Assembly (NCBI RefSeq): GCF_047555085.1
Contig: NZ_CP180230.1
Coordinates: 990,001-1,022,000, forward strand
Length of the DNA: 32,000 nt
From: Candidatus Saccharimonadota bacterium
Lineage (GTDB): Archaea; Nanohalarchaeota; Nanosalinia; Nanosalinales; Nanosalinaceae
Direction: 5' to 3'
Part shown: positions 8,301-30,904 of the stretch, piece by piece
How the letters are laid out: every line of letters begins with the position of its first letter
Position numbering within the stretch: the stretch's first letter is position 1
Made by a program: the position numbers and the translations under genes
The notes under the pieces: generated by a model
Database searches by the model: none
What the model saw: the letters and a program-made list of their open reading frames with translations, nothing else
What the model was told of the DNA's origin: nothing

Positions 8301-9936
8301 ACTTCACTGTAGAGTTCCAGTGTCCAAGCCTGACATCGCCCGTGGAAACCTGGCCTGTATCATTCATCGCAACGTAGAGGCCGTCCTCAAAGACACTGTT
8401 CGAGGACGTGTCGACGTCCCAACGGGAAATATTTCCAAGAGTATCATTGTAATCATCAGAGATCAGAGTTCCTGCCTCACCTTCAGGCCCAAGAACGACA
8501 TAGTCCTGAGCAGAGTCAGAAATATTCAGAACAACCTGATCTCCAGCAGTGTAATATCCGTCCTCATCCGTATCATTGTAGCCTAACTCTCCTGATTTCG
8601 TGTAGTTCCCGGCAGGAGAATCAGTACTGTCAACATCGCTCTGCGTGAACTCTGTTCCAACAGAGGCCTCTACAGTACCGTTATCAGGATCCTGATTGTA
8701 CAGAAGGATATCGCCCTCGCTAAGGCCGTCGTCTTCTGTGTCATAGACAATGACGTCCTGATCAACGCTGTCTCCTGGATTCCAGGAGCCTGTGCTGGAG
8801 CCGTACTCAAGCACTCTGAAACTTCCACCACTGTAAACACTCAGGGATTTCCCGAGATCGTTCGTCTCAGGATGACTGTCAGAACTATTCATTACTGAAA
8901 GCAGATTCAGGCCTAGAGATATCCCTGTGGAAGAAGGCCTTGAAGAGACATCGTAGTTGCCAAGCCGGATATCGGAAGCGTTAACGTAGTTATTATTTTC
9001 CTGACTGTAGTATATCGGATCTCCGGACGTGAAAGCGCCATCGCCCTGATCTGCGTAAAGTAAAGTCGTCTCATTGGCCCACAGAAGATCAGCCTTTCCA
9101 TCCCTCTTGATGACATCGCCGCTTCTCTCAAGAGTATCATCCTTACTTCCCTCCTCACGCACTATAGCGGAGGAAGCAACGAATCCTATCTGTGAGCCGT
9201 TCTGCTCCAGATATCTCGTCGTATCGGCCTCAAACTGGCTTGGATAGAACTCCGATCCAAGATCAATCACTCTATCACTGCTGTCAAGCACGTTATCAGA
9301 GCTATTCACAAGAATCTCCGTTCCATAAACTCCTCCATCAAACTGTCCATTGCCGTTTGACTCCACGTACCGGACATCACTGTGAAGAGTCCTTGAAGAG
9401 AAGTTACCTGAAGCCAGTACCTCGGCACTTCTGTCAACGAGGCCTGAATCAGTACGCAAAACTATCTCTCCGGCGAATCCTGCTGTAGAATTATTTCCAT
9501 CAAAAACACTGTTGTTATCGACACCGCCATCCAAAAAGTAGACATCGGAAGAAAAGTTCGCTATCGCAGTACTGTTCAGCACAGAGGCCTTATCGCCCAC
9601 ATGCTCACGTACAACTCCAAGAATGTCCTCTCCATCACCGTATCCGTTGAGGCCTTTATCCTCTCCGGACTGATTCAGGAACATCGTACTGTTATCCTCA
9701 AAACTGTAGACAGCAGCTCCCGGTACAGGCGATCCCGAAATATTTTCGTCGCCCCCATAAGTAATATTGAAACTGAAAGCACCAACACCGGTAGAATCAG
9801 GCTGAACTGTCTCATCATTAGCCATTCCATCTCCAAGAGGAGTTATCGACGTCCCTGAAGCCAGGCCCGTCAGAAATACAGCTAAAGCTAAAACATAAAG
9901 TACATCAGCGATGTCCGAATTTTCTCTCGCTTTCAT
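5302..9936 (-). CDS. giant (1544 aa) acidic secreted surface protein, S-layer or adhesin candidate, with no recognisable membrane anchor
   Basis: Single uninterrupted ORF with an ATG start and signal-like N-terminus (VLYVLALAVFLTGLASG). It has more than 40 N-x-S/T sequons by eye. Degenerate D-x-[DN]-G-x-[YF]-x-x-G-[DE] repeats recur. The C-terminus has two GWNFVSFP...GYM / GYNLIGTF...AYWL modules. There is no C-terminal TM or PGF-CTERM. Confidence 0.85.
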   Translation of the reverse strand: MKARENSDIADVLYVLALAVFLTGLASGTSITPLGDGMANDETVQPDSTGVGAFSFNITYGGDENISGSPVPGAAVYSFEDNSTMFLNQSGEDKGLNGYGDGEDILGVVREHVGDKASVLNSTAIANFSSDVYFLDGGVDNNSVFDGNNSTAGFAGEIVLRTDSGLVDRSAEVLASGNFSSRTLHSDVRYVESNGNGQFDGGVYGTEILVNSSDNVLDSSDRVIDLGSEFYPSQFEADTTRYLEQNGSQIGFVASSAIVREEGSKDDTLERSGDVIKRDGKADLLWANETTLLYADQGDGAFTSGDPIYYSQENNNYVNASDIRLGNYDVSSRPSSTGISLGLNLLSVMNSSDSHPETNDLGKSLSVYSGGSFRVLEYGSSTGSWNPGDSVDQDVIVYDTEDDGLSEGDILLYNQDPDNGTVEASVGTEFTQSDVDSTDSPAGNYTKSGELGYNDTDEDGYYTAGDQVVLNISDSAQDYVVLGPEGEAGTLISDDYNDTLGNISRWDVDTSSNSVFEDGLYVAMNDTGQVSTGDVRLGHWNSTVKLGDKDTGNGTVEEGDLDQGAVLDSFTASDNVAALDRNNKDVYDAGIGRLSDNEQGREALISTTDEFLNDTDDIIREGRMPSAGFDSNIRYFDSDDSTEYEEGEAIVDATNGFGDGSDVIVPGSAGFAALQAETKYMETGSTGFDPAVDPLVHDAGRDGLLRKGSLDRADTSGSDDYVYTEFEGNLQNFNRSLNETGMKKTVFLDSQSSGADEGVYNAGEDILEVELVTNGSASDSFDGEEIFNFADSTRHTAATYSDGEKIVNDTDRNGVYQNVVQDIEISNVVDVADYPEFFTEANDTAINSGLRVYRHYEDTREEVGVLGYDGGLKWSSGVSENITNDTKFSVEFDSAPAGDLGDMLHGFKGETSQISLAGGSVGTVTSEDVQVIDGHAPELVEAWTGNRNGGESTATSKVFVKTNEQYSGLDYGSHITPGRFNIVGEDLLVDSALGPDDTNMVDGNNIVLVLNESVQTNKTFDVEIAEGEFIQDNAANSRSDDSVYAQDGLKPQLETQVYRDVNEDGKVDLIELNFSENISYSAFSSDDWNVTEEELSGLTVDSGTAGNNDTLELEASADENITGVKESEPFLDYEADAVVDNSGNTLNDFNRTLADMAAPVIFNATTGDDNRDARIDRIGLNFTEPLDDQASELLPDSFSIGDAGEVEGVVSGESDDSELDLEISSERGTDSSPSVTMFSEAIRDSSGNSIDEEQVFAGTVDTTNPVLLNAQINHGQSSYANTFVNVRFSEPVKGDREQINLSSKALAFQNTDSAQLHTVEYGEILPTGNSPNVTGITNITDSSGNTAVLEASDNVTVNSFRKQMVEGWNFVSFPIADETTPAIEKVIDTSKIDVVWTYRNSQWQTYDPEASQNDFTEFEGGVGYMIKASEDFVLNPNVNTVRTHMTGRDLANASTGLANGYNLIGTFQEHTVPADNSETGAFGALDTTHVDTVYEQSSAGSRQVDTVRDSTGNSPGEMSPGEAYWLNWEGDSASYSEPVVDGGG

Positions 9937-14769: not shown

Positions 14770-15068
14770 CCTGAAGTCGGCGAGCCTTTCTCAGAAATCC
14801 GGGACCGGTACTTTTCCAGGGCCTCATCCAAGGCCTCTTCAGCATCGATATCCAGTGACTCTGCCACAGCCAGTAGCGAGAAAAATACGTCACCGATCTC
14901 ATCCTTTTTGACATCCAGTTTTTCAGGCCTCTCACCGTATCCCGCAGATTCCGTGGCATCCTTCGCAACTTCCCCAACTTCTGATACAAGATCCAGAATC
15001 CTGAACTCTGCCGTCCCATCCAGTTCATGCTTCTGTATGAACTCAGCTACTTTCTCCTGCTCCTTCAT
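14766..15068 (-). CDS. MazG-like nucleoside triphosphate pyrophosphohydrolase (single-domain)
   Basis: The EVGEVAKD ... DEIGDVFFSLLAVAESLDIDAEEAL blocks are the E-x-x-E / D-x-x-D helices typical of the MazG/all-alpha NTP-PPase fold. The start lies 3 nt after the ribH stop. Confidence 0.8.
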   Translation of the reverse strand: MKEQEKVAEFIQKHELDGTAEFRILDLVSEVGEVAKDATESAGYGERPEKLDVKKDEIGDVFFSLLAVAESLDIDAEEALDEALEKYRSRISEKGSPTSG

Positions 15069-15071
15069 ACT

Positions 15072-15479
15072 TCAGGCCTCCGGCAGATCCTTCACAAGAT
15101 TTACAGCGGCCTCTACAGCTGCAGCACCGTAGTCAGTTCTTTCCGAGGCCTCCTTTGAATTCATCCCGGGGCCTGTTACGCCAAGTGTCACAGGAGTATC
15201 ACGTTCAACACTGATATCTGAAAGCTTGTCGGCTATAGCATCCCCTATCACTTTATCGTGATCAGTATCGCCTTCAATTATCGCTCCAAGGACAGCTACT
15301 GCATCTATTTCTTCTTTTCGAGCTAATCTGTCCGCTGCCAGCGGCGCATCGTATGCTCCCGGAACTAAAACTTTTTCAGCGATTTCTGCATCAAGTTCAT
15401 CTGCTTTTTGCTCGGCCTCTTCTTCCATCTTCTCCGTCACTCCACGATTAAATTTTGCAACTACAAGCCCTAGTTTCAT
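15072..15479 (-). CDS. ribH: 6,7-dimethyl-8-ribityllumazine synthase
   Basis: LGLVVAKFNRGVTEKM, VPGAYDAPLAA, AVAVLGAIIEGDTDHD and TLGVTGPGM align block by block with archaeal lumazine synthases as I recall them. Confidence 0.88.
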   Translation of the reverse strand: MKLGLVVAKFNRGVTEKMEEEAEQKADELDAEIAEKVLVPGAYDAPLAADRLARKEEIDAVAVLGAIIEGDTDHDKVIGDAIADKLSDISVERDTPVTLGVTGPGMNSKEASERTDYGAAAVEAAVNLVKDLPEA

Positions 15480-15508
15480 ACAGAAACTTTTGCCGCTGTA
15501 ATCTTAAA

Positions 15509-16372
15509 TCACGTTTCCAGTATACCCTTCCTGGCCGCGTGGAAAAGATACTCCTGCGCGTATCCGGCATCCTCCCCGAAGTACTCCCGTACATTTTTGG
15601 AAATCTCCTCGTAATCATCGGAAAAAAGTTCAGGATACTGTTCCTCAATCAACTGGGAGGCCCACGTATCTATCGGATAGGCCTCGTAGAATCCGAGCGA
15701 AAACAAAAGTACACAGTCAGCTACTTTGTCTCCGACGCCGTAAAGATTCTTCATCTCCTCACGGGCCTCCTCGTATTCCATACCTCTTACTTCTTCCGGA
15801 TCGAAATCTGTCTCCTGTAAAATCTTCACTGTCTCAACGATGTACTTCGCCCTGTATCCGATCCCGAGATCCCTTAAGTCGTCTTCAGAGGCCTCTGCAA
15901 GTTCCTCCAACGTCGGGAATCTTCTCATCTCGATGCCATCGATCATTCTTGTCTCGCCAAATTTTTCAGCCATCTTGTTATGCATCTCCTTGATCCTTGG
16001 AATCCTCATCTGAGGAGAACAGAGATACGAGATCAGACACGGGAAAAATTCGTCCTGTATAATTCTCAGGCCCCATAGCTCTTCCCTGGCCTTCTCCAGC
16101 TTCCGATCATCTGGAAAAGTGGAGAAAATTTCCTGGAGATCTCTGTCAAGGCCTACAGCCTCTTCAACTTCCTCTCTCGGTAGTTCTGTCCTGGCGACAA
16201 GGCCTTCATCCGTATCTTCGATTATTATCGGCTTGTTTTTTCTGAAAGTATAGAAATGCGGCTCTCCGTCCTCGTAAAGAGTTCCAGCGACACGATGCCA
16301 GCAAAAGGTCTGGCCACACGTCATCGTCAATTCAAGATCAAAATCTTCATCATCAAGAACGTATCTTTCCAC
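15509..16372 (-). CDS. ogg: 8-oxoguanine DNA glycosylase / AP lyase (OGG1-type, HhH-GPD)
   Basis: An OGG_N-like TMTCGQTFCWHR block is present. The HhH-GPD block YGVGDKVADCVLLFSLGFYEAYPIDTW carries the catalytic Lys and Asp. GTG start. Confidence 0.85.
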   Translation of the reverse strand: MERYVLDDEDFDLELTMTCGQTFCWHRVAGTLYEDGEPHFYTFRKNKPIIIEDTDEGLVARTELPREEVEEAVGLDRDLQEIFSTFPDDRKLEKAREELWGLRIIQDEFFPCLISYLCSPQMRIPRIKEMHNKMAEKFGETRMIDGIEMRRFPTLEELAEASEDDLRDLGIGYRAKYIVETVKILQETDFDPEEVRGMEYEEAREEMKNLYGVGDKVADCVLLFSLGFYEAYPIDTWASQLIEEQYPELFSDDYEEISKNVREYFGEDAGYAQEYLFHAARKGILET

Positions 16373-16412
16373 AGAAAACAGTTGGAACAGGAAACTATTT
16401 TTACCTGAGGCC

Positions 16413-17105
16413 TCAGGAAGATTTCCTTGAAGTCACGTGGAGGCCTCTCTTTCCTGTCCTGTAGATGTACTGTATCTCAGATACTGTTAGAGGCCTGTTG
16501 TACAGTCTTATTTCACTGAGTTCTCCGCTGTAGTATGCTGTGGTCTCGTTTGTCGTCGAATCATTGGACTGAGCCATTCTTCCGAACTGTAGGTTGCCGC
16601 CGGTATCATGGTTCTGGGCGTTCCAGTTCCATGTATCAACTAGTTCTCCGTCAACGAAAGCTCTGGCCGTTGAACCGGAATCGTTGAAAGTGGCTGCGAT
16701 GTGATGTAATTCTCCGTCGTTCACAGTTATCGTGCTTACTGTGTGTTCATAGGTCGAGTCGCCGTTCATAAATCGTAGATAACCATTGCCATCCCTGTTG
16801 ACCTCCGCTTCGTACACCGGCTGCCAGTCGTTGACAGGATTTTTCCTGATAAAACCTCCTCTACCGGAAGTCGAAGTTCTGATCCAGAAAGACATTGTCA
16901 GCTCTCTTCCTTCAAGAGAAAGCTCTGGAGAGTCAGACACCTCAACGAAATCGTCCGATCCATCAAAGCTGTATGCGTTCTGGCCGTGGAGGCCTGAAGC
17001 CGTTCTCGTAATACCTCCGTTCAAAGTGCCATGATTCTCATTAGATGAAAAATCCTTTGCGTCCCCGGAGCCCTCATTTAGAGGCCAGTATCCAACTAAC
17101 ACCAT
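16413..17105 (-). CDS. LamG / concanavalin-A-like lectin-fold protein without an obvious signal peptide
   Basis: LVGYWPLNEGSGDAKDFSSNENHGTLNG...YSFDGSDDFVEV...SFWI...HHIAATF...FVDGELV...SEIRLYNRPLTVSEI is the classic Laminin_G_3 pattern. Confidence 0.8.
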   Translation of the reverse strand: MVLVGYWPLNEGSGDAKDFSSNENHGTLNGGITRTASGLHGQNAYSFDGSDDFVEVSDSPELSLEGRELTMSFWIRTSTSGRGGFIRKNPVNDWQPVYEAEVNRDGNGYLRFMNGDSTYEHTVSTITVNDGELHHIAATFNDSGSTARAFVDGELVDTWNWNAQNHDTGGNLQFGRMAQSNDSTTNETTAYYSGELSEIRLYNRPLTVSEIQYIYRTGKRGLHVTSRKSS

Positions 17106-17141
17106 ATCAACGGAATCGCAGAATATTTTTCATAGAGGTTT

Positions 17142-19067
17142 TCACGTCACGTTTATGACTATACTATCGTTTTCAGGCCTGAACTTTGCGCCTTCCTTTA
17201 TAGTCACTTTTTCAGCTGTTATAGTGAATCCTCCTGTCCACAGGCCTGAAATTGCGGATTTATTGAATATGTTAAGTTGTGCAGGAGCTGATAAAGCACC
17301 TACATCAGCTTTTTGCTTCGCCTGGAAGATTTCCTGTATTGAAAAGCTCTTGTCTGAAATCTGTTTTGAACTGTTCAAAATACATTCATTTCTTGGGCCT
17401 CTCAAGTCGCATAAACTGGAGACAACGGTTGAAAATTCCCAGTAAGGTGACTGGATGCTGGAGAAGCCGTCTGTAACTTCTACATACCAGTAGTATGTTT
17501 CATTTGTTTCAAAATCAGCGTAGTTTACTTCAGGCCTTGTGTCAGATTCAACATTTGTCTTGCTTCCAAGAGAGTATGTTTCTGGCTTTTTTTCGCATAA
17601 AACTGTCTGTTCTGCGGAGTTGCTGCACTGGTAGTCGTTCCATTTACCTCCCGAGTACATCTCTGCACAGTCTTCACCGTTCTGATTGTTAGGTTCGTTG
17701 CTGCCCCAGTTCACGTAGCTTGAGGAGCCGTTCTCCCATTCAAAGTTTCCTTCTGATGCTCTGTCATTGTATCCTATCCATAGATCTCCGCCGAACTCCT
17801 GATTTATCGCATCATTTTCCTCGGCATCGTTGATAGTTACGATATGGCCTCCCTGAGCTTTGCAGTAGTCTACTCCATTTGTCCAGCTCTGAGTTGATTC
17901 GCTTTCATTATAGCAGACTTCATCTATACGCGTCCAGCCGGAAGGACAGTCTCCAAGCGCCTTGAAACTTACATTCAGCTGTTCTCCATCCGGATCCGAG
18001 ACGTTAACCGAGAAATCTACAGGCATAGAAAGATTTTCTGCCCCGTCCTGAGGACCTGGATCAAAAACGTCAGGAACGCCAATAGTTATACTTGGTTCCG
18101 GTTCCGCCCTGTCAACACTGTATCTAAGGCCTGAACTGCCGGATGAAATCCTCCACTGGCCTCCCCATCCGCCTGTATCTTCGTTCACCATCATCAGGAC
18201 AAGATTCCTGCCCTGATCCAGCGTAGCTGAGAAAGTACTGTCATCTACGGTGAGGCCTTGATCATCACACTCCTGATGCTCCAGATTCCCATTAATCCAT
18301 ACTTTTCTCGTGTCATCTGAACCTACAGAGAAATCAACAGTACGAGTATCAGGACTCCATATGTAGGCCCCTATAAATCCTTCTGAGCTGGACTGATCGC
18401 TGCCCCATACAGTATCGAAGTCAACCTGGTACTGGCTGTAACCTCCGTACACACCGGAATTAGTTGTATCAATCGCTTTCCAGAAACTTCCAGAATCCCA
18501 GTTAGAGCTTCCTAGAGTGGAGGATGCATGAGGCCTGTCTGTTGCAGGATCAAAGTTGGCATCTAGCGTACAATCTACATTTCCTCCTGCCCATTTCATC
18601 CCTATGAACTGGTCTCTCGTGTATCCTCCGGAAGTAAGAGTTCCTGAAGGAACTGTCTGGCTGAAGCTTGTCTTTGAAGATGCCTGCGGATTATCGTAGT
18701 AAACATATACGTTCTCTGTTGCACCTGCACCAATATCCTGCACATTAACTACAAGATCCGTGGAATCAGTGTTACAGCCTGATTTTATCCAGTAGTCAAG
18801 TGATGTGCTGTCATCAGTGTCAACGAACCTGAGATCGCTGCAGTCGTTCTGAAGACTACCTGAATCCACAAGAGTCGCTGTATCTATAGTCATCCTCACC
18901 GGATAGTTGGAAAGTGTTCTCCCAGAGTTCTCTGTAATCTCTATTGTTTTCCTGTCGTTCCAGCTATCATTCCACCAGGAAGCAGATAGAGGCAGAACTA
19001 GAAGTAGTAAAATCATAACCAAGAATATTCTCGGGAATTTCTGCAGTATTTTCCGGCTGTACGACAT
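17142..19067 (-). CDS. secreted multi-lectin protein: signal peptide, DUF2341, PA14-like domain, Fn3-like domain interrupted by a C-type lectin domain, conserved C-terminal module
   Basis: Residues 31-135 carry the DUF2341 pattern (WWNDSWNDRK...DLRFVD...LDYWI...VYVYYDNP). Residues about 150-320 look like PA14 (FIGAYIWSPDTRTVDFSVGSDDTRKVWINGN...LDQGRNLVLMMVNEDTGGWGGQWRIS). Residues 374-491 are the C-type lectin domain. Residues 552-641 are shared with the 20436 gene. Confidence 0.85.
   Translation of the reverse strand: MSYSRKILQKFPRIFLVMILLLLVLPLSASWWNDSWNDRKTIEITENSGRTLSNYPVRMTIDTATLVDSGSLQNDCSDLRFVDTDDSTSLDYWIKSGCNTDSTDLVVNVQDIGAGATENVYVYYDNPQASSKTSFSQTVPSGTLTSGGYTRDQFIGMKWAGGNVDCTLDANFDPATDRPHASSTLGSSNWDSGSFWKAIDTTNSGVYGGYSQYQVDFDTVWGSDQSSSEGFIGAYIWSPDTRTVDFSVGSDDTRKVWINGNLEHQECDDQGLTVDDSTFSATLDQGRNLVLMMVNEDTGGWGGQWRISSGSSGLRYSVDRAEPEPSITIGVPDVFDPGPQDGAENLSMPVDFSVNVSDPDGEQLNVSFKALGDCPSGWTRIDEVCYNESESTQSWTNGVDYCKAQGGHIVTINDAEENDAINQEFGGDLWIGYNDRASEGNFEWENGSSSYVNWGSNEPNNQNGEDCAEMYSGGKWNDYQCSNSAEQTVLCEKKPETYSLGSKTNVESDTRPEVNYADFETNETYYWYVEVTDGFSSIQSPYWEFSTVVSSLCDLRGPRNECILNSSKQISDKSFSIQEIFQAKQKADVGALSAPAQLNIFNKSAISGLWTGGFTITAEKVTIKEGAKFRPENDSIVINVT
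17145..17414 (-). other. conserved about 90-aa C-terminal module, copy 1
   Basis: LCDLRGPRNECILNSS..IS...F....IF.A...AD...N.S.ISGLW.G.....GA.FRPE...I..NV aligns without gaps to the C-terminus of the 20436 gene, at roughly 40 percent identity by eye. Confidence 0.7.
17595..17948 (-). other. canonical long-form C-type lectin domain (protein residues 374-491)
   Basis: CPSGWTRIDEVC...SWTNGVDYC...HIVTINDAEEN...WIGYND...NEPNN..GEDCAEM...KWNDYQC.....LC. Six Cys sit at the positions of the three CTLD disulfides. The WIG motif, an EPN triplet and a WND triplet are all present. Confidence 0.8.
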
Positions 19068-19068
19068 T

Positions 19069-19248
19069 TTAATCCTTCTTGCTGTATTTCTTGAATCCTG
19101 TCTTTCCTTCCTTCTCCTCTGAGGCCTTGCTTTTAGTCTTCTTGGCCTTTCTTTTGAGATAGCTCCGGCCGCATTTATGGCATTTCACACGCTTCTGGGC
19201 CTTACTTCTCTGGCGGTACCCGCAGTCAGGACACTGGTAGTACACCAT
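19069..19248 (-). CDS. small zinc-ribbon protein with lysine-rich tail (59 aa; below the ORF-track cutoff)
   Basis: My translation of the minus strand is MVYYQCPDCGYRQRSKAQKRVKCHKCGRSYLKRKAKKTKSKASEEKEGKTGFKKYSKKD. It carries a CxxC...CxxC motif. Its TAA stop is separated by 1 nt from the ATG of the multi-lectin gene. Confidence 0.55.
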   Translation of the reverse strand: MVYYQCPDCGYRQRSKAQKRVKCHKCGRSYLKRKAKKTKSKASEEKEGKTGFKKYSKKD

Positions 19249-19339
19249 GTAGAGAGATTTAATTCGGAACTGTAAAAACGTAGCGGTGAGTTACAGGAAA
19301 TCCGAAATATTTTTCCCGGATGCGGAAGAAATACCAGTT

Positions 19340-19618
19340 ATGGACCAGAAAATCAAGAAAGGAGGCCTGATAGGAGTAATATTTGCGTTAATAGCATATG
19401 TGATCGCGCTCCGTAACGGATTCAACCAGTCAACTTTCACACTTTTTCTCTACCTGTATGTAGGCCTTGGCGTAATCGCTTCCCTGGAATTTTCTGATCT
19501 CCAGGCCCGTGGATTTCTGGACAGAATAGTTATAGTGGCAGAGGATGAGGAAAAGAAGCTGAAGAAGCTTTTCAGCGACGAAGAATACAGAATCGACGGC
19601 ACTGTAGAGAAAGTCTAG
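19340..19618 (+). CDS. small two-helix membrane protein
   Basis: The ATG at 19340 (MDQKIKKGGLIGVIFALIAYVIAL...) is preferred over the GTG at 19286. An A/T box at about 19306..19315 lies 25-34 nt upstream. Its stop shares the tetranucleotide CTAG with the convergent gene. Confidence 0.5.
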   Translation: MDQKIKKGGLIGVIFALIAYVIALRNGFNQSTFTLFLYLYVGLGVIASLEFSDLQARGFLDRIVIVAEDEEKKLKKLFSDEEYRIDGTVEKV

Positions 19619-20400
19619 TGACTATCCCTATCGATGACAACACCGTCACTGTCCTCAAGAACTGCTCTATCCGATGTCTCATCCCAGTCAACACCTGTAC
19701 CGTACACATACCCTGAGTCCTCTTCCTCGGAGACATTAAGCGCGTCTTCGGCAGCAGTGTACACGAACAACTGTTCTCCTGGCTCCAGAACAATATTTTC
19801 AAACGTATAGGAATCCGGATCAGAGTTTGTCAACGTCCAGCCATCAAGATCTATCTCCCTGTTCTCATCATTGTCTATAACAGCTCTTTCATCTTCATCG
19901 GAGGCCTTTGAACGTGTTATCCTTACATCGACTTCAGGAGTCATCTCGTTTCTTACTCTGGCTCTGTAATCATCCATACTTTCCTTCATAGACTGCATCC
20001 TGTTTTCAAGAACAGTCCTGTTCGCTCCCTTGAAACGGGAGACAGATAATCCATCTTTCAGGCCTTCGACAAGAGTTCCTGCCGCCATCTCCAGAGTATA
20101 TATTCTTGAAGTATTGTTGACTTTCAGAGTCAAAGTTCCTCGCGGAGTAGAAAGTTTCTCGATCCTCTGGAACGGATTTTCTTTAACAGTATAAAGAGAG
20201 TCGCTTTCCTCTATAGAGGCCTTTGAGAAATCCTCTGCCTCAATATCCACATCGGTCTGGAGATTTGAGGTATCAGAAACCATAGGCGTTGATTCAGAGC
20301 CGAAATCAACGTTTTGAGATGCCGTAGGAAAAGCTAGAAGAGCTGTAAGGATAAAGGCAGATATGATAGCTCCTGTTCTATCCGAAGCCATCTCTAACAT
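19615..20400 (-). CDS. secreted protein with C-terminal lamin-tail domain (LTD)
   Basis: Signal-like N-terminus (AIISAFILTALLAFPTASQ). The C-terminal VIDNDENREIDLDGWTLTNSDPDSYTFENIVLEPGEQLFVYT...WDETSDRAVLEDSDGVVIDRDS fits the LTD pattern. Confidence 0.75.
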   Translation of the reverse strand: MLEMASDRTGAIISAFILTALLAFPTASQNVDFGSESTPMVSDTSNLQTDVDIEAEDFSKASIEESDSLYTVKENPFQRIEKLSTPRGTLTLKVNNTSRIYTLEMAAGTLVEGLKDGLSVSRFKGANRTVLENRMQSMKESMDDYRARVRNEMTPEVDVRITRSKASDEDERAVIDNDENREIDLDGWTLTNSDPDSYTFENIVLEPGEQLFVYTAAEDALNVSEEEDSGYVYGTGVDWDETSDRAVLEDSDGVVIDRDSH

Positions 20401-20435
20401 TAAAACAGAGTTTCCTGATTAAAAATTATTGGCCT

Positions 20436-21728
20436 CTACTCAACTACGTTGAGAGAAATCCTGCCGTCTTCAGGCCTGAAATATGCACCAGAAGTGAGAA
20501 CCAGTTCCCGGGATGAGAGATTGATGCTGCCTCTCCACAGGCCCGAGATCGTGGATCTGTTATCGACATTTATCGCTCCTGAGGCCTCTGTTGAGCTTAT
20601 ATCAGCTGATTCTCTGGCAATAAATATAGAGTTGAATGTGAAGTCTTCCCCTGATATATCTCTTGAACTGTTTATTATGCATTCGTTCACAGGGCCTCTG
20701 GCATCACATATATCCACAGAGGCCTCAGATCCTATCTCTATCTGAGGTTTGCTGGCCACATAGTTTCTTGTTCTCACCCAGTCATAGGATGTGTCCGTGG
20801 TTGTTGGGTCAGAATCCAGTGAGAAATGTCCGAGGCCTATGACAAAGTTTGAATGCTGTGAGGTGAGATCTCCTGTGCACGAGACACGGTTATCATAGTT
20901 TAGAGCTGTCTGGACTTGTGATCCTGTATCAGTTATACTGTAGATGTAGTTTTCTCCAGTAGTGGCTGTGAAAGTGCTGACTCCAGAACAGATATTGTAT
21001 GAAGTTGTATCGCCGTTCCCTGTCCATGTTGAAACTTGTCCAGATGTCTCATCCGTAATGAAAAGTACATTTGCATTGCCGTTGCTGTTGCTTCCTGACA
21101 TAGTGCCGCTGTCAGCTATCATAAGGCCTGAGTGATCTCCAGAGATGCTTGAAGTATATTTTAGCCGGGCCTCTACTACAGTTCCTGGCTGTGAGACTTC
21201 TTCAGTAGCCGAGTGAACGTTTCCTGTAGTTATTTCCAGTCTGCCGTTTGATTCTGTAAGTGCATCGCCGCTGTTGTAGTCAGTCCACTGGTCTGAAAGC
21301 GTACCGTCATTGAAACCGTCGAAAACAGGGAAAGTTGCCTTGCCGTTGCTTCCTGGAGAGGCCTCCGGATTGCCGTAGTATGCGTATATTGTTTTCTCGG
21401 CTCCTGCCTTTAGTTCAGGGAGTTCTACCCATACCGTGGTAGATTCTGTGTTGCAGCCGGATTCTATCCAGTAATCCATGGATGTATCGTTATTTCCTGC
21501 AAACCTCAAATCCTGACACGAGGCCCGCATATTACCGCTGGATATCATTTCAGAAGTATTTAACTCCAGTTTAATCTGGTGATTACTGAGATCCTGTCCT
21601 GAAGTCTCTGTAACTGTGATATTTTTCCTGTAATCCCAGCTGGAATCCCACCACGCTGCAGATACAGGAACGGAAAGCATCAGCACAGCAACCAAGGCAA
21701 AAATCGCTGAAATTTTCCTGTTATTCAT
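20436..21728 (-). CDS. secreted DUF2341 plus ConA/LamG-like lectin-fold protein with conserved C-terminal module
   Basis: The ATG at 21728 (MNNRKISAIFALVAVLMLSVPVSA) is preferred over the GTG at 21755. It has a DUF2341 block (WWDSSWDYRK...DLRFAG...MDYWIESG...IYAYYGNP). A jelly-roll region ends in the typical YDWVRTRNYV. The C-terminal module is paralogous to that of the 17142 gene. Confidence 0.8.
   Translation of the reverse strand: MNNRKISAIFALVAVLMLSVPVSAAWWDSSWDYRKNITVTETSGQDLSNHQIKLELNTSEMISSGNMRASCQDLRFAGNNDTSMDYWIESGCNTESTTVWVELPELKAGAEKTIYAYYGNPEASPGSNGKATFPVFDGFNDGTLSDQWTDYNSGDALTESNGRLEITTGNVHSATEEVSQPGTVVEARLKYTSSISGDHSGLMIADSGTMSGSNSNGNANVLFITDETSGQVSTWTGNGDTTSYNICSGVSTFTATTGENYIYSITDTGSQVQTALNYDNRVSCTGDLTSQHSNFVIGLGHFSLDSDPTTTDTSYDWVRTRNYVASKPQIEIGSEASVDICDARGPVNECIINSSRDISGEDFTFNSIFIARESADISSTEASGAINVDNRSTISGLWRGSINLSSRELVLTSGAYFRPEDGRISLNVVE
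20439..20711 (-). other. conserved about 90-aa C-terminal module, copy 2
   Basis: ICDARGPVNECIINSSRDISGEDFTFNSIFIARESADIS...NRSTISGLWRGS...SGAYFRPEDGRISLNV. See copy 1 at 17145..17414. Confidence 0.7.
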
Positions 21729-21794
21729 GGAACACACGGATATAGAAGAGATCACTACAGCTTAATGATTTTTCCCTATACCTTTGAGACTTCA

Positions 21795-22793
21795 TTAGAG
21801 ATCTTGATAGTTCTCCATAAATACCGTGAGAATCGACTTCATCACTCCGAATATCACGGGGCCTATGAACAGGCCTGGAGCACCGAGGAGCACCACCCCA
21901 CCTATAACACCGAGTATAATCAGAGCAGGATGTAGATCAGCCGAGCTCTCGACAAAAAGAGGCCTCAGGAAGTTATCACTCAGGCCTACAGCTATGAATC
22001 CGTAAAGTGCAAGCATTATACCTGAAACAGGATCTGTTAAAGCCAGATACCCTGCTGCAGGAAGCCATACCAGCATAGATCCTACTATAGGCAGGAGGCC
22101 CAGTATCATCATTATGAAAGTCCAGAACACATAGTTTGGAACACCGAAGAAAGCCAGTCCTACACCTGCTATGATTCCCTGTGCTATAGCTACAAGTATA
22201 TGGCCTTTCATAACAGCTGAAGTAGTCACTGACACTTCTCTAAGCAGACTGTTTTCAAGACTCTCCGGTAAAGGTGAAACATCTTTCACCCATCTTACAA
22301 GCCTTCTTCCATCTTTCAAAAAGTAGTAAACAAGGAAAAGCATCAGTGAAAGGCCTATCCCAACGTTTGCAACTATGTTGACCACTCTTGAGAAGCTTCC
22401 CAGTGTTGCAGAGCTGAATTCCTCTACTGCGCGGGCAAGATTGGATTCTATATCGATCTCCTGGCCTGTAAGCCTCTCAATTTCATCCTCTATAGATGTG
22501 AGATTTATTGTATCTGTAGTATTGATATTGTCAACAAGATCTGTCGCATCGTCTGCTACAGCCATTCCTCCAAAAATTATCGGCAATACCGCCAAAAGTA
22601 TAGCTGAGACTGTAAGAACTGCTGCCGAAGGCCTTGCACCTATCTTCTCCTGTAGGATGAAATGAGGCCTTCTCAGTATAAATGCCAGGATTGTTGCGCC
22701 CAGTATGTAAGTGAGAAATGGCATAAGCATGAGGCCTACAACAGTTCCAAAAATACCGATAAGGAACAGCAGGAAGCCTTTTCGCTCGTTCAT
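21795..22793 (-). CDS. AI-2E family transporter (PerM/UPF0118-type permease)
   Basis: LPIVGSMLVWLPAAGYLAL...GLSDNFLRPLFV...HPALIILGVIGGVVLLGAPGLFIGPVI matches the conserved C-terminal blocks. The ATG at 22793 is preferred because the longer ORF overlaps the upstream gene. Confidence 0.85.
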   Translation of the reverse strand: MNERKGFLLFLIGIFGTVVGLMLMPFLTYILGATILAFILRRPHFILQEKIGARPSAAVLTVSAILLAVLPIIFGGMAVADDATDLVDNINTTDTINLTSIEDEIERLTGQEIDIESNLARAVEEFSSATLGSFSRVVNIVANVGIGLSLMLFLVYYFLKDGRRLVRWVKDVSPLPESLENSLLREVSVTTSAVMKGHILVAIAQGIIAGVGLAFFGVPNYVFWTFIMMILGLLPIVGSMLVWLPAAGYLALTDPVSGIMLALYGFIAVGLSDNFLRPLFVESSADLHPALIILGVIGGVVLLGAPGLFIGPVIFGVMKSILTVFMENYQDL

Positions 22794-22815
22794 ACATGAT
22801 TTTTTGATGTCTAAG

Positions 22816-23958
22816 CTAAATAAAGACTCCGATACCTGAGAAAAACAGTATAGATGGAACAAGCAGAACTGCCATACAGACTCTTCTGTTACCTGTCTCC
22901 AGAGCAGCGTAACCGATCATAGAGGCTGTAAAAATTACAACAAGACCTGTAAATCCTGTCACGGCCGCAGAAATAGCTACCAGAATTACAAGAATTGTAG
23001 GGAAGATTTTTGACAGCGAAATATTCTCCAGCAAATCCGTGTAGAGGCCTGAAATCTTCAGGGCCAGTAAGGCAGATACAGGAACGGAAATCAAAGTCAC
23101 CAATATCACGAGATCTATATTTACCTGTGTTGAGAAAAGCTGGAGCGCCACAGAGACCCCGGAGCGTGCATTCCCAAGTATCTGTAGAGTAAAGATGGAG
23201 AAGATGATATCAGTAGTATTCACGGCTCCCATGGAAGACATGAATTTTCCTGATGAATCATTCATGAAAGGTGATACGAAAGCTGTCGATACAGCAGCGC
23301 CTATACCAGGGACCACTCCTGCAAGAAATCCTGCTGCTGTTCCGAAAATACCTCCGGAGAATGCGTTAATTTTATCGATTTCAGGTCTGTCCTGATCCGG
23401 TATCTCAAAACTTTCCTCCATAGATCGGATTATGGCAGGTACTGCGAAAAGGCCTGAAAACAGCGGTATGAAGATGAAATTCTGATTAACAGGTACTTCA
23501 AAACTGAGGACTCCAAGGACACCAGAGAAAAGTGCTATTAGAAATGCTTCAGGCCTGTCATCCGAGTCCAGGACTACGAACAAAAGGAAGAAGACCAGGA
23601 TATACTCCATAAATGACTCTATACTCGAGTAAAGGCCTTCAAGGAAGAAAAAAGAAAGCAGAGCAACAGCCAGCACAGGTACAACAGCTGAGAGAGCTCC
23701 GTACACCGTGTAGTGAAATGATTCAAGGCCTTTTCCCTGCTGTACTGCGGATTTTCCGTTTATAGTGGAAAGTGCGGACTCTGCATCAGGCGATGAGAGA
23801 AAAATCGCCGGCAGAAAATCATGGAAAGTATGGGACACAGATATAGCAGACAGGAATACGGCATAGGCACCGAGGCCTGTTCCAGAGCCAAGATAGAAAG
23901 GTACGGTAGTAAATATCACAGTGTTTGGATGTATTCCCGGGATAAGGCCTGTTGCCAC
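22816..23958 (-). CDS. TctA/DUF112-family membrane transporter subunit (start uncertain)
   Basis: Many TM helices with the repeated G-x-x-PG-x-G pattern (GLIPGIHPN, GFLAGVVPGIGAAVS). The first canonical start is GTG 23958. The frame stays open and TM-like upstream, back to an in-frame TAA at about 24019..24021. Confidence 0.7.
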   Translation of the reverse strand: MATGLIPGIHPNTVIFTTVPFYLGSGTGLGAYAVFLSAISVSHTFHDFLPAIFLSSPDAESALSTINGKSAVQQGKGLESFHYTVYGALSAVVPVLAVALLSFFFLEGLYSSIESFMEYILVFFLLFVVLDSDDRPEAFLIALFSGVLGVLSFEVPVNQNFIFIPLFSGLFAVPAIIRSMEESFEIPDQDRPEIDKINAFSGGIFGTAAGFLAGVVPGIGAAVSTAFVSPFMNDSSGKFMSSMGAVNTTDIIFSIFTLQILGNARSGVSVALQLFSTQVNIDLVILVTLISVPVSALLALKISGLYTDLLENISLSKIFPTILVILVAISAAVTGFTGLVVIFTASMIGYAALETGNRRVCMAVLLVPSILFFSGIGVFI

Positions 23959-24035
23959 TCCCGCTGCGATCCCCAGTGCCGAGAAAAGCAGTAGCGTTAC
24001 AGGTTCCGTGATAAACTGTTTTTATCTATCGCCGA

Positions 24036-24433: not shown

Positions 24434-26071
24434 CTACTTCTCCATATGTTCAAGGATCTTGGAGTATGCAGGCCTTGTGATAGTTATTCCTACAAGGATT
24501 CCAAGTATTGTTGTAGTTGCGAACTCTGTAATCTGCTGTAGAGATGAAAGAGGGAATGTTGTAGCGAATGCTCCTACTGTAAGCGCCATTGCTCCTACGG
24601 CAATATAGTGCCTTCCAGCGCTGCTTTTGTACTGGCTGTATCCTATCAAGCCTAGTCCTGCTGCTCCCACCATCATTGCAGAGAATCTTGGTGAGAGTAT
24701 TGGCACCATCGCTCCGATTGTGGAGGCTGCAGAAGTGAATATAACGAAGAAAGCTGTCTTCATCCTCTGCTTCCAGTCCTTGACTGTTTTCCTGTCGGAT
24801 TCATCTGTTATAATTATCTGGTCGTCTACTCCCGTACCTACCGCAGCGATTATTCCTGCTATCGCTGAGAGGCTGAGTGTTGCAAAGCTTGTGAACCAAA
24901 GGCCTAGAAGTATGAATACCTCTGAAGCACCCGTCAGGACTATAGGTGCGACAAGCTTTGGATTGCGGTATCTTACAAAGATGAGCACTCCTACAGCGAG
25001 CAGTGCTCCGATTATCGATAGAATTGAAGCTGCCATGAACTGGCCTCCGAGCGAGCTTCCGAGGCTTGATGTGCTGACGATTTCAACAGGCTCTGGAAGC
25101 CTTCCGGACTGAAGTAAGGCCTCGATCCTGTTCATTTCCTCTCTGGCAGCTCCTCCAGAATCTCTTGAGATGGTTATACTTGGATTGGTTATTGTGTTTC
25201 TCTGGAATTCTTGAGATACTGTGAATCCTGTGATGGCTTCGCTGTCGATGAATATCGTCAGTTCTGCCGGGCGACCGTTCTTCATCTGAAGGGAACCGCC
25301 ACCGCTTGCTGAAGGAGACACATCATAATTATTGGCTACATCCATCAGTCTCTGGGCGGACGTCTGTGAAACAGTTAGAGGTATCTGCCCCTGATATGTA
25401 TTCTGTGCTACCTGGCGGACAGCAGACTGTGAAGTCCTTACATTGAGTATATCTGTGTTATCGTAGATCTGGAACTCCATTCTTGTGTATGAACCGTTCT
25501 GACCGGCGTAGTATACTCTTGTGTCCCCGAGCTCCTGATGATCTCCCTGTTCCAGAGTCTTATTGTAGTATTCCAGGCCTGAATCTGTGTAACGACCTAT
25601 ACTTACTGTTGAATCATTGTTCTTGACGAAACGGTATGTATCAGATAAAGTGAAGTTGCCCGAGTCTGAGAAAAGATATGGCATCCGGGCCTCAAACGCT
25701 CCTTCTCGGGAGATAAGCTGCTGCAAACGAGTGTTGTTCTGTTCAGAAGTTGTAACGCTGATTCGATGTCCTGTACCGATGTCTATAGTATTAATAGTGG
25801 TTTCTCCGAATCCTATCTCATTTACACGTGTTCTGAGGATTGATGCGATGTTCTCAACCAGTTCCTCCGATTGATTCTCGGACTGAACCTTTAGAAGGAG
25901 CTGTGAACCTCCAGAAAAGTCTATACCCATGTTATCTTCAAGGCCTGTGAACTCCAGATTGTAGTTGCCGTTGTTCGATGTGTATGTTGGCTGGAGGCCT
26001 GCTACGGAGAAAGCAAGGACTACAAGCAACAGTATTACACGCCATTCCTTGAGCATATTTTTTACGGCCAT
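24434..26071 (-). CDS. secD: protein-export membrane protein SecD
   Basis: 545 aa with an N-terminal TM helix, a large extracytoplasmic domain and a C-terminal 5-TM bundle carrying GTGVDDQIIITDE. It overlaps the secF stop by 10 nt. Confidence 0.85.
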   Translation of the reverse strand: MAVKNMLKEWRVILLLVVLAFSVAGLQPTYTSNNGNYNLEFTGLEDNMGIDFSGGSQLLLKVQSENQSEELVENIASILRTRVNEIGFGETTINTIDIGTGHRISVTTSEQNNTRLQQLISREGAFEARMPYLFSDSGNFTLSDTYRFVKNNDSTVSIGRYTDSGLEYYNKTLEQGDHQELGDTRVYYAGQNGSYTRMEFQIYDNTDILNVRTSQSAVRQVAQNTYQGQIPLTVSQTSAQRLMDVANNYDVSPSASGGGSLQMKNGRPAELTIFIDSEAITGFTVSQEFQRNTITNPSITISRDSGGAAREEMNRIEALLQSGRLPEPVEIVSTSSLGSSLGGQFMAASILSIIGALLAVGVLIFVRYRNPKLVAPIVLTGASEVFILLGLWFTSFATLSLSAIAGIIAAVGTGVDDQIIITDESDRKTVKDWKQRMKTAFFVIFTSAASTIGAMVPILSPRFSAMMVGAAGLGLIGYSQYKSSAGRHYIAVGAMALTVGAFATTFPLSSLQQITEFATTTILGILVGITITRPAYSKILEHMEK

Positions 26072-26994
26072 GGGATCACCTCACGAAGATCAGGTACATT
26101 GAAGTCTCCTTCAACATACTTTTTCAGTATGAATGCGTTGCCGAACCAAGTGAACGGCATATCTGCCAGAAGGCCTATCACCATGACTGATGCAACGGCT
26201 GAAAGTTCTGAAGGCCCTACAAGAGCCATGGAGATAAAGTACAGAAGTGTGAAAGCTGCTATACCTCCCGAACTCATAGTTACTCCCGTCTTGACTGAGC
26301 TCCAGATCCTGTCACGCAGAGAACCTCTCTTCTGCTTCAGAACTCTTGAAGACAGAACAATATCGGTATCAACAGAGTATCCGATAAGCATCAGTAACGC
26401 CGATAGAGAACCGAGCGTCATCGGAATATCAAGAAGCGACATAGCCGCTATAGTAAATATTATATCTGCAGACGCCGCAAGGACGACAGCAAATGCTGGC
26501 ACAAGATCTCTGAACGAGGTGAAAATCACCAGGCTCATGATTGTAAACGCTAGTATAAAAGCCCATACGGCCTGTATGAAAAATGTTTCAGCTACTGCAC
26601 TGGTGGCAAAGTAGAACTGCTGGACATCGACATTAAAGTTCTTTATCGAGTTGTTCTCAAGGAAAGATTCGGCTACAGACTCGTTTTCCAGCTGTGGAGG
26701 CGGCACTGTAACTCTAAGTATAGGCCCGCTTTCAGTTTCCTCTCTCAAAGCACTTGTACCAGGCCTTCCCTGAGAGGCAAAAATCTCTTCTATCTGTACC
26801 GTATCGAACTCTTCCTGTATATTATATGTTACTTCTGTTCCTCCCGAAAAGACTACTCCTCTGTCGACAACGTTACCGTTAGCTGCGTACTGGCCTCCTA
26901 TAACAGCTAGAGACAGCACGAAAAGTAGAACCGGGATGATAAACCAGCGATCATAATCCGCATAGATCCTGTTAAAATATTCCTCTACGTTCAC
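26062..26994 (-). CDS. secF: protein-export membrane protein SecF
   Basis: 310 aa with an N-terminal TM helix, a periplasmic-type domain and a 5-TM bundle carrying GYSVDTDIVLSSRVLKQKRGS. GTG start. Confidence 0.85.
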   Translation of the reverse strand: MNVEEYFNRIYADYDRWFIIPVLLFVLSLAVIGGQYAANGNVVDRGVVFSGGTEVTYNIQEEFDTVQIEEIFASQGRPGTSALREETESGPILRVTVPPPQLENESVAESFLENNSIKNFNVDVQQFYFATSAVAETFFIQAVWAFILAFTIMSLVIFTSFRDLVPAFAVVLAASADIIFTIAAMSLLDIPMTLGSLSALLMLIGYSVDTDIVLSSRVLKQKRGSLRDRIWSSVKTGVTMSSGGIAAFTLLYFISMALVGPSELSAVASVMVIGLLADMPFTWFGNAFILKKYVEGDFNVPDLREVIPWP

Positions 26995-29783: not shown

Positions 29784-30904
29784 TCTTCCTTGCTGTATCC
29801 CTGGCACTAGGATTCCTGACGACGTTCGTAGGAACACCATATGCCAGGAAATACCTCCTCAGCTCCGGAATATACGGGGTAGATCAGCAAAAGAAGGAAA
29901 AGCCAAAACTGGCGACATCCGGAGGAATAAGCGTAGTCTTCGGATTTATAGTATCGCTTACAGTGTACCTAGGCCTTATATCTTTCTCAAGCGCTCCTGC
30001 CTCGAATATAACTCTGATACTCGCTGCCTTAAGCTCTGTATGCATAATCACGTTGATAGGCCTAGTTGACGACATACACATCAACATAGAGAAGTATGTG
30101 CAGGACGAACTTGAGATAGAGGAGTTTGAACTTGATCTCTCAAATGAAAAAGAAAGTAAAACCCCTTTTGCAAAGATATGGGAACGCATCACAGTATTTG
30201 AGGAGAATGAAAGGGAACAGGAAGTACACCGTGAAGGCCTCAAACAGAACCTGAAAATGCTTTTCGTACTTCCAGCAGCGCTTCCGTTGATCTCCGTAGG
30301 AGCCGGCTCATCAGTAATGACTCTTCCAGTAATCGGGACAATCGAATGGGGAATCCTTTACCCTCTTCTACTGCTTCCGGTAGGCCTATTGTTCGTATCA
30401 AACGTGGTAAACATGCTTGCAGGGACTAACGGGCTCTCCGGAGGGATGAGCCTCGTAGCTTCATTCTATCTTGGCCTCTTCGCGTACCTTAACGGAGAAA
30501 CAGCTGCAATGCTGATAGCATGGAGCCTTACAGCATCACTGCTTGCTTTCATGTACTACAACTTTTATCCTGCCTCGATACTTCCAGGAGATTCTCTAAC
30601 ATACCTGTGTGGTGCAGCACTTTTCGCAGCGATGGTGATAGGAAACATGGAGAAATTCGGCGTATTCCTATTCATCCCATGGATTACAGAGTTCCTTCTG
30701 AAACTCAGAAGCGGATTTCAGGCACATTCCTGGGGAATACTTCAAGATGATGGAAGTCTGAGGCCTCAGCACGAGAAAATTTACTCTTTAACTCATCCGC
30801 TAATGAATAAAGGCCTGAATGAAAAACAGATAACTGTGGCTCTAATGAGTGCCGAGATAGTTATAGGTGCTGTTGGTATTTTGCTTTTCTCGGGGATTCT
30901 GTAA
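29780..30904 (+). CDS. glycosyltransferase family 4 (MraY/WecA/AglH-like polyprenyl-phosphate HexNAc-1-phosphate transferase)
   Basis: GLVDDIH and NMLAGTNGLSGG motifs in a polytopic membrane protein. The start overlaps the aglB stop (ATGA). An acidic insert of about 55 aa follows the DD motif (about 30080..30253). Confidence 0.8.
   Translation: MIFLAVSLALGFLTTFVGTPYARKYLLSSGIYGVDQQKKEKPKLATSGGISVVFGFIVSLTVYLGLISFSSAPASNITLILAALSSVCIITLIGLVDDIHINIEKYVQDELEIEEFELDLSNEKESKTPFAKIWERITVFEENEREQEVHREGLKQNLKMLFVLPAALPLISVGAGSSVMTLPVIGTIEWGILYPLLLLPVGLLFVSNVVNMLAGTNGLSGGMSLVASFYLGLFAYLNGETAAMLIAWSLTASLLAFMYYNFYPASILPGDSLTYLCGAALFAAMVIGNMEKFGVFLFIPWITEFLLKLRSGFQAHSWGILQDDGSLRPQHEKIYSLTHPLMNKGLNEKQITVALMSAEIVIGAVGILLFSGIL

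Follow-up and report, generated by a model that had tools for sequence, protein, structure and literature searches.

What is a C-type lectin domain (CTLD) of seemingly animal type doing in a gene of a nanohaloarchaeon, how is it built into the protein, and where does it come from? Nanohaloarchaea (DPANN) are obligate episymbionts of haloarchaea, and how DPANN episymbionts such as these recognise specific hosts is an open question. The gene considered here lies on the minus strand of a 32,000-nucleotide stretch of the Nanosalinaceae contig NZ_CP180230.1 (assembly GCF_047555085.1, positions 990,001 to 1,022,000 of the forward strand), which we call the window and whose numbering is used throughout. 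An earlier note on this DNA had proposed that the encoded protein contains a canonical CTLD inserted into a loop of a domain resembling fibronectin type III (Fn3). Both proposals were borne out: the identity of the domain, the conservation of its site residues, its nesting within another domain and its prokaryotic affinity are observed features of this protein. A database protein (P0001) is 100% identical; NCBI lists it as a 624-residue 'DUF2341 domain-containing protein' of Candidatus Nanosalina sp. VS9-1, and UniRef already labels the identical protein 'C-type lectin domain'. Four orthologues from independent metagenomes, sharing 63-83% identity, were compared with the window protein.

The lectin domain and its calcium sites

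Translation assigned nucleotides 17595-17948 exactly to residues 374-491. The six cysteines (374, 385, 402, 467, 481 and 491) and the W430-I-G, E465-D-C and W476-N-D motifs lie where the earlier note had read them; its EPN triplet, placed at E457, was off by one residue and occupies 458-460. The hmmscan search that the note had suggested returned Pfam Lectin_C (PF00059) at 73.2 bits (cut-off 22.6; E 3.5e-20), aligned over profile positions 2-107 of 107 to residues 392-493. When phmmer was run against all PDB sequences, each of the 216 chains matched was a CTLD protein, including PLA2R, DEC-205, the mannose-receptor family, CD23, DC-SIGN, aggrecan, SRCL and MBP, and single carbohydrate-recognition domains (CRDs) gave E values of about 1e-19 to 1e-13. 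The six cysteines and all four motifs (WIG, EPN, E-D-C and WND) are invariant in 5/5 orthologues, the window protein included, and the family pattern predicts the disulfides C374-C385, C402-C491 and C467-C481.

The residues of both Ca2+ sites were compared by alignment with rat MBP-A. The site 2 ligands E185, N187, E193, N205 and D206 of MBP-A correspond to E458, N460, E465, N477 and D478, and the site 1 ligands D161, E165, D188 and D194 to D435, E439, N461 and D466; E465 counts as a ligand of both sites, site 1 then comprising D435, E439, N461, E465 and D466. The EPN, E-D-C, WND and D..E motifs each align without gaps, and the sole difference from MBP-A around the sites is that the loop from EPN to E-D-C is one residue shorter. 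In CTLDs, EPN together with WND confers Ca2+-ligated binding of equatorial 3,4-diols, as found in mannose, glucose, GlcNAc and fucose. On the basis of these two motifs, the Nanosalina domain is predicted to bind sugars of this type in a Ca2+-dependent manner.

For structure prediction with AlphaFold2 (AF2), residues 317-565 were modelled from an alignment in which 70 CTLD segments were added to the orthologues. Uninterrupted homologues of the surrounding Fn3-type domain (described below) were left out of it, as MAFFT put them, whole or halved, inside the CTLD columns. The predicted local confidence (pLDDT) was 86 and the predicted template modelling score (pTM) 0.79 for the whole piece, with pLDDT 94-98 in the CTLD, whose elements follow the canonical order beta0-beta1-alpha1-alpha2-beta2-long loop-beta3-beta4-beta5. 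Foldseek superposed the model on the CRDs of SRCL, CD23, ASGPR, MGL, DC-SIGN(R) and Endo180 in the PDB with target-normalised template modelling (TM) scores of 0.85-0.89 and a root-mean-square deviation of 1.5-2.1 A over about 130 columns, indicating that the double-loop fold of a CTLD is present in the prediction. Given the Lectin_C match and this predicted fold, the identification of the domain as a CTLD stands, and the PDB matches and the MBP-A alignment likewise support a canonical long form with a complete set of Ca2+/sugar-site residues.

Animal EPN-type CRDs (MBP-A, DC-SIGN/DC-SIGNR, SRCL/CL-P1, CD23 and the mannose-receptor family) belong to the same Pfam family at about 30-35% identity, and they have in common with the Nanosalina domain the six-cysteine long form, WIG, the EPN/E-D-C/WND residues of site 2 and the D/E residues of site 1. 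In contrast to these, the Nanosalina CTLD is archaeal, highly acidic (isoelectric point, pI, 4.05) and devoid of a neck, coiled coil or transmembrane anchor, and it lies within a loop of a second domain, whereas animal CRDs are terminal or tandem modules.

Insertion into a fibronectin type III-type domain

The earlier note had read the sequences on either side of the CTLD (residues 337-373 and 495-547) as two halves of one Fn3-like module. We joined them by deleting residues 374-494 from all five orthologues and used the spliced alignment in a metagenome scan. Besides three further loci of the CTLD gene, the scan recovered uninterrupted domains of the pattern P-x-P-A-D-G-A ... V-Y-F-G ... L-E-A-N-K-T-Y-Y-W-R-V ... 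V-W-S-F-T-T, the Fn3-like pattern given in the note. These uninterrupted homologues (L084-L097) have 25-35 residues at the position where the Nanosalina protein has its 118-residue CTLD. A hidden Markov model (HMM) built from 13 of them matched the spliced flanks in one alignment (HMM positions 4-91 against spliced positions 5-96) at 40 bits, and the highest score among 1000 shuffled sequences was 7.2. The N-terminal half by itself scored 4.7 bits, a value reached by 0/1000 shuffles; the pattern by which the comparison loci had been retrieved did not draw on this half, although their tblastn confirmation may have done. With hhalign, the spliced flanks aligned to 12 uninterrupted domains at 98.6% and E 1.3e-15 over 91 columns running across the junction.

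The profile of the uninterrupted family in turn matched solved Fn3 domains, namely those of titin, RPTP-delta, 7jgt, 3mpc, tenascin-R and FN3con, with E values for single domains between 6e-5 and 1e-3, and the host domain can therefore be placed in the Fn3 superfamily through a transitive link. The AF2 model agrees with this placement. Before the CTLD it has strands at residues 350-353 (B) and 364-371 (C), with pLDDT 74-94, and after it at 497-506 (C'), 513-516 (E), 524-532 (F, TYYWYVEVT) and 537-546 (G), with pLDDT 83-94; in the model, the insertion point is the C-C' loop of an Fn3-type domain. The junction-spanning alignment, the shuffle controls, the link to solved Fn3 structures and the modelled strands all support a single interrupted module.

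Taken together with the CTLD fold, these features suggest how the two domains would be combined. The C-C' hairpin of the Fn3-type sandwich would be opened and a complete long-form CTLD put in; the two termini of the CTLD are expected to lie side by side, held together by the hairpin C374-C385 and the disulfide C402-C491, and therefore the insertion would leave the Fn3 fold intact. The Fn3 domain would then act as a pedestal, with the lectin projecting from the protein.

Two other candidates for comparison were set aside. Locus L081, which matched query residues 5-100 and was at first taken for an uninterrupted orthologue, contains the CTLD when translated, and the 'Ig_Rha78A_N'-type repeats of P0013/P0014, considered as a model of the host domain, reached only 34% with hhalign and were superseded by the L084-L097 family. 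Neither the protein database search nor the metagenome scan found a CTLD-less orthologue from the same lineage.

Relatives of the domain and recurrence of the nesting

The earlier note had also assumed that prokaryotic proteins of the CTLD fold usually lack the Ca2+/sugar site. This premise did not hold. A search of representative proteins yielded 26,770 clusters at E<=1e-3, and among prokaryotic genomes, scanned at one per species, at least 526 loci were confirmed to carry the WIGYND.. and EPN..ED motifs. Among the loci listed are Myxococcota, Planctomycetota, Bacteroidota, Verrucomicrobiota, Cyanobacteria, Proteobacteria, Actinomycetes and Clostridia and, from the archaea, an unclassified archaeon and a Promethearchaeota metagenome-assembled genome (MAG; L017, 378-635). 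A Hodarchaeales protein of 646 residues (P0165) has three tandem EPN/WND CTLDs, all of them very acidic (pI 4.05). The occurrence of the CLECT domain in some bacteria is, moreover, already in print (PMC2651865). Prokaryotic Lectin_C CTLDs (from Myxococcota, Planctomycetota, Bacteroidota, Cyanobacteria and others, and those of Bin_444 and of Hodarchaeales MHA2296059.1) have 'WIGYNDR..EG.W.W' and 'EPNN.G.EDC' in common with the Nanosalina domain, whose identity is 51-52% to the archaeon Bin_444 and 39-47% to the bacterial domains. Most bacterial CTLDs are short-form (matching from about query residue 17-25), cysteine-poor and arranged in tandem or beside Cys-rich or HYR modules, whereas that of Nanosalina is long-form and sits in an Fn3 loop.

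Scored per domain, the closest non-orthologues were the two CTLDs of the Bin_444 protein MBD3312755.1 (111.6 and 93.2 bits), followed by the metagenomic protein P0008 (92.9 bits); bacterial loci scored 75-85 bits and the best animal sequences (Mytilus and Branchiostoma) 76.5. Animal receptors with multiple CTLDs head the database list because scores there are summed over the many domains of each protein, and the representative list that was used is biased toward multi-CTLD proteins. The Bin_444 CTLDs form a tandem pair in an extremely cysteine-rich protein of 1123 residues (L001, WJKC01000058.1, 2635-6006); the proteins encoded next to it are lysine-rich, so the proteome is not of halophile type. 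In a neighbour-joining (NJ) tree of 64 domains, which for so short a domain and so simple a method bears on shallow branching only, 99% of bootstraps recovered the Nanosalina group as monophyletic and 51% placed it as sister to Bin_444. It lay within long-form myxococcotal and deltaproteobacterial domains, and the smallest clade enclosing it was free of animal sequences in 435/500 replicates. 'Animal-type' in the sense of animal-derived thus finds no support: the nearest relatives are from an archaeal MAG and from Myxococcota and deltaproteobacteria, and the animal domains are more distant.

The composition of the CTLD is native to its surroundings. Its GC content is 0.48 (0.52 at third codon positions), compared with 0.45 (0.44) for the gene, in a window of 45-48% GC that encodes acidic proteins, and its pI resembles that of the rest of the protein. 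The CTLD gene occurs in five independent assemblies with conserved synteny. Of the modular and possibly horizontal acquisition that the earlier note had envisaged, an older modular acquisition within this lineage is plausible, whereas a recent transfer finds no support in this native composition and conserved synteny.

C-type lectin-fold (CLec) variable proteins of diversity-generating retroelements (DGRs), such as Mtd, TvpA and the archaeal and FGE-type proteins, belong to the same broad fold superfamily and have likewise been proposed as ligand-binding surface proteins of DPANN archaea (PMC7443923, PMC5006420). Such proteins have been reported in DPANN and in Ca. Nanohalobium. They differ from the Nanosalina domain in being divergent, in lacking the Ca2+/sugar site and the Lectin_C signature, and in owing their diversification to a template repeat together with a reverse transcriptase. 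A DGR variable protein was accordingly rejected as an interpretation of the Nanosalina domain, which is a canonical Lectin_C domain, has no FGE-sulfatase match and has no template-like repeat of the CTLD in the window; no reverse transcriptase was found among the window open reading frames (ORFs) scanned, which did not include every small ORF.

Nesting of CTLDs in beta-sandwich domains was found in other prokaryotes as well. Excision of the CTLD from P0015, a protein of 542 residues from a JGI metagenome (residues ~150-380), restored a canonical fn3 domain that matched profile positions 3-83 of 84 above threshold (E 1.8e-8); as judged from these matches, P0015 is an independent second case of a CTLD within Fn3, apparently split at a similar loop. 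In the Flavobacteriales protein P0023 and several Bacteroidota loci, excision restored a match to HYR instead, for example over profile positions 10-81 of 81 (E 6e-9), 4-81 of 81 (E 2e-11) and 2-81 of 81. With an HMM of spliced HYR domains, the flanks spanned the junction as one HYR domain in 20/122 CTLD instances and 13/79 bacterial loci (L022, L007, L034, L036, L037, L055, L058, L061, L068, L072, L073, L075 and L025, with the CTLD near 4001-4300 in most), a count that is partly circular in that seven of these sequences had trained the HMM. One ORF of Winogradskyella (L034) has four such HYR-embedded CTLDs in succession.

These proteins (P0023, L034 and P0015) follow the same principle as that of Nanosalina, an EPN-type CTLD in a loop of a beta-sandwich. 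Their host domains are HYR or canonical fn3, whereas that of Nanosalina belongs to the 'P.P.DGA...VYFG...TYYWRV...W.F.T' subfamily of Fn3. Counting the metagenomic bacterium with canonical fn3 and the many Bacteroidota with HYR, such CTLDs occur in three unrelated host domains, the third being the Fn3 subfamily of Nanosalina. None of the bacterial CTLD flanks (0/122) matched the Nanosalina-type Fn3 subfamily, and the nested architectures of Nanosalina and of bacteria therefore look like, and are probably, the products of independent insertion events.

Protein architecture, neighbourhood and proposed function

The modules of the CTLD protein and the neighbouring genes are listed in Table 1.

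Table 1. Positions of the features discussed, in window coordinates; residue numbers are those of the CTLD protein.
Feature	Position	Strand	Basis or remark
CTLD gene, whole	17142..19067	-	641-aa multi-module protein, predicted secreted; ORF list
Putative Sec-type signal peptide, residues 1-30 (MSYSRKILQKFPRIFLVMILLLLVLPLSAS / WWNDSW)	18978..19067	-	read by eye: basic n-region, hydrophobic core, SAS motif
DUF2341 module, residues ~31-140	18648..18977	-	Pfam PF10102, E 1.7e-11
Middle module of ~175 aa, residues ~144-320	18108..18638	-	61% identity to LamG-rich metagenomic protein P0006
Host Fn3-type domain, N-terminal half, residues 337-373	17949..18059	-	strands A (weak), B, C
Inserted long-form CTLD, residues 374-491	17595..17948	-	Pfam Lectin_C, AF2, Foldseek
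EPN triplet, residues 458-460	17688..17696	-	Ca2+ site 2 ligands; translation and MBP-A alignment
E465 and D466 of 'GEDC'	17670-17675	-	upstream of WND
WND triplet, residues 476-478	17634..17642	-	Ca2+ site 2 ligands N477, D478; MBP-A alignment
Host Fn3-type domain, C-terminal half, residues 492-547	17427..17594	-	strands C', E, F (TYYWYVEVT), G (YWEF)
Conserved C-terminal tail, residues 548-641	17145..17426	-	C553/C562 pair; BLASTP to paralogue and P0007
LamG_3 protein	16413-17105	-	immediate neighbour
Lamin-tail-domain (LTD) protein	19615-20400	-	immediate neighbour
Paralogue, 439 aa	20436..21755	-	signal peptide + DUF2341 + ... + C-terminal tail; other middle 'cargo', without CTLD
CARDB-domain protein	3817-5298		adjoins 1544-aa ORF
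1544-aa ORF	5302-9936	-	no Pfam or NCBIfam match
SecD/SecF	24434-26994	-	
AglB/STT3 oligosaccharyltransferase	27120-29783	+	
GT4 glycosyltransferase	29780-30904	+	start overlaps AglB stop

The N-terminus, read by eye, has the appearance of a Sec-type signal peptide. Together with the DUF2341 module and the tail of about 90 residues, it forms a scaffold that the CTLD protein has in common with the paralogue at 20436-21755 and the metagenomic protein P0007 at 43-50% identity (in BLASTP, 43% to the paralogue and 50% to P0007 for DUF2341, and 44-46% to the two for the tail). The 'cargo' in the middle is swapped across this scaffold, and P0007 carries there a COLFI-like domain (fibrillar-collagen C-terminal, PF01410). 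The middle module of the CTLD protein contains GSDDTRKVWINGNL and GGWGGQWRIS and looks beta-rich; no Pfam or PDB match to it was found even at E<=10, and a PA14-like reading, made by eye only, was dropped as no Pfam or PDB profile supports it. The tail has a conserved C-x8-C pair and no Pfam match. With a pI of 8.7 it is basic, whereas the protein is otherwise very acidic (pI ~4.1), and it is possibly a cell-surface anchoring module. The only direct repeat of at least 40 nucleotides in the window joins the tail of the CTLD protein and that of the paralogue. The CTLD protein has 11 N-x-S/T sequons.

No more than about 8 kb separates the surface-protein genes from those for SecD/SecF, AglB/STT3 and a GT4 glycosyltransferase. 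Two related contigs (L098/L099, JGI 3300007616/3300007668; ~70% protein identity), compared with positions 15000-24000 of the window, have the CTLD gene in the same backbone, in the order STT3-SecF-SecD-NAC-TctA-AI-2E ... LTD - CTLD gene - LamG_3 - OGG ... DMRL synthase. There, the DUF2341 paralogue gives way to a LamG_3 gene, and OGG and DMRL synthase are separated by two extra LamG_3 genes. The surface-protein genes of this region thus form a variable island within a backbone that is itself conserved. The LamG_3 neighbour of the CTLD gene gave a match to the NCBIfam TafC fimbrial protein that was far below threshold (E 2e-7; 30 bits, with the cut-off at 410). The ORF of 1544 residues may encode one of the large orphan surface proteins that nanohaloarchaea are reported to possess.

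We propose that the CTLD protein is probably a secreted, N-glycosylated surface adhesin whose Fn3-displayed CTLD binds glycans, with those of the haloarchaeal host as the leading candidate. The EPN site would provide Ca2+-dependent binding of sugars with equatorial 3- and 4-hydroxyl groups, so that the role of the domain would be glycan recognition or adhesion, and a haloarchaeal S-layer glycoprotein or exopolysaccharide would be the foremost target. The context is of surface type, with a signal-peptide-like N-terminus, sequons and LamG_3, LTD and DUF2341 neighbours. Lectin-like surface proteins of nanohaloarchaea have been proposed as host-attachment factors (PMC7443923, PMC10266531, PMC9563170), and it is from such proposals and from the nanohaloarchaeal lifestyle that we infer a host glycan as the target; secretion is likewise a prediction from the sequence.

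Several points weigh against this interpretation. The ligands of some CTLDs are proteins or other molecules even though the motifs are intact, and no recognisable membrane or S-layer anchor was found in the sequence of the CTLD protein. With a shallow alignment of the five orthologues only, the AF2 model was poor (pLDDT 43.8), and the depth added later covers the CTLD only, so that the flanks still rest on five orthologues; strand A of the Fn3-type domain was of low confidence. No curated fn3-type Pfam profile exceeded its threshold on the spliced flanks. The score of the C-terminal half against the uninterrupted domains is inflated and partly circular, because those domains were retrieved by a pattern from the target's own C-terminal half.

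The most serious alternative, which we nevertheless regard as unlikely, is that the CTLD binds in cis, anchoring the protein to the N-glycosylated S-layer of the symbiont itself, while DUF2341 and the middle module face outward and recognise the host. The sequence has no visible transmembrane or PGF-CTERM-type anchor, AglB/STT3 and GT4 are encoded about 8 kb away, and S-layer proteins of nanohaloarchaea are reported to be N-glycosylated (PMC10266531), all of which would suit such an arrangement. However, the conserved basic tail is also present in CTLD-less paralogues and is therefore a better candidate for a common anchor; glycans of self and of host are, for their part, indistinguishable in silico. 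A nutritional role, in which the CTLD, as a carbohydrate-binding module, would keep glucans or other polysaccharides close to the cell, is considerably less probable. EPN-type sites accept glucose, and cultivated nanohaloarchaea live on polysaccharides in consortia (PMC7443923, PMC10266531), but neither the CTLD protein nor its immediate neighbours contain a glycoside hydrolase or transporter domain, and the neighbourhood encodes adhesin-like proteins (LamG, LTD) instead.

We give still less credence to the possibility that the flanks are not one domain, the CTLD lying between two short beta-rich linkers or degenerate domains and the likeness to Fn3 being a coincidence of motifs (DPDG, TYYW). 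In its favour, the Pfam matches of the spliced flanks in the five orthologues were all sub-threshold, a profile of these flanks matched nothing among PDB sequences, and strand A was modelled poorly. Those sub-threshold matches were, at the same time, solely to sandwiches of the Ig/Fn3 type: Ig_Rha78A_N in 5/5 orthologues (best E 0.005), fn3 in 1/5 (E 0.027), and Pur_ac_phosph_N, Big_9 and Big_5. Against such a coincidence stand the hhalign match across the junction, the N-terminal half that by itself outscored 1000/1000 shuffles, the AF2 confidence on the two sides of the CTLD (pLDDT 83-94 as summarised for both, with the pTM given above), and the independent proteins in which excision of the CTLD restores a full-length fn3 or HYR match above threshold. 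Finally, a recent acquisition from an animal, or contamination or a chimeric assembly with eukaryotic DNA, is hardly credible: the animal receptors that top the database list owe their rank to the artefact of summed scores, the best non-orthologues per domain are archaeal, metagenomic and bacterial, the NJ replicates point the same way, and the CTLD is in frame inside an archaeal gene, with the acidity and GC content of its surroundings and conserved synteny in five independent assemblies, so that eukaryotic contamination was rejected.

We therefore retain the adhesin as the preferred interpretation. The domain family was already known and the protein already annotated automatically, and canonical CTLDs abound in prokaryotes. 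The novelty lies in the nested Fn3-CTLD architecture of an archaeal episymbiont and in the recognition that such nesting recurs in bacteria. We found no paper describing CTLDs nested in beta-sandwich loops in the open-access literature. As a wider and decidedly tentative proposal, an EPN-type CTLD in an Ig-like or Fn3 loop might be a general, repeatedly evolved and hitherto undescribed adhesin design of prokaryotes, with the Nanosalina CTLD as a determinant of specificity for host N-glycans.

The survey corrects a common assumption, given that CTLDs competent for Ca2+ and sugar by their motifs are widespread in bacteria and are also found in several lineages of archaea, the Asgard archaea among them. 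Where CTLDs are repeatedly nested in the loops of beta-sandwiches, adjacent termini would be exploited in a natural form of domain insertion, which bears on protein evolution and on how displayed binders might be engineered. The published candidates for host recognition by DPANN episymbionts are mostly large LamG/PKD proteins without a predictable ligand. The Nanosalina protein offers a module of about 210 residues whose predicted binding chemistry (Ca2+, EPN and sugars with equatorial 3,4-hydroxyl groups) is fully specified, and if the CTLD does determine specificity for host N-glycans, the choice of host by a DPANN archaeon would become testable with one small recombinant domain.

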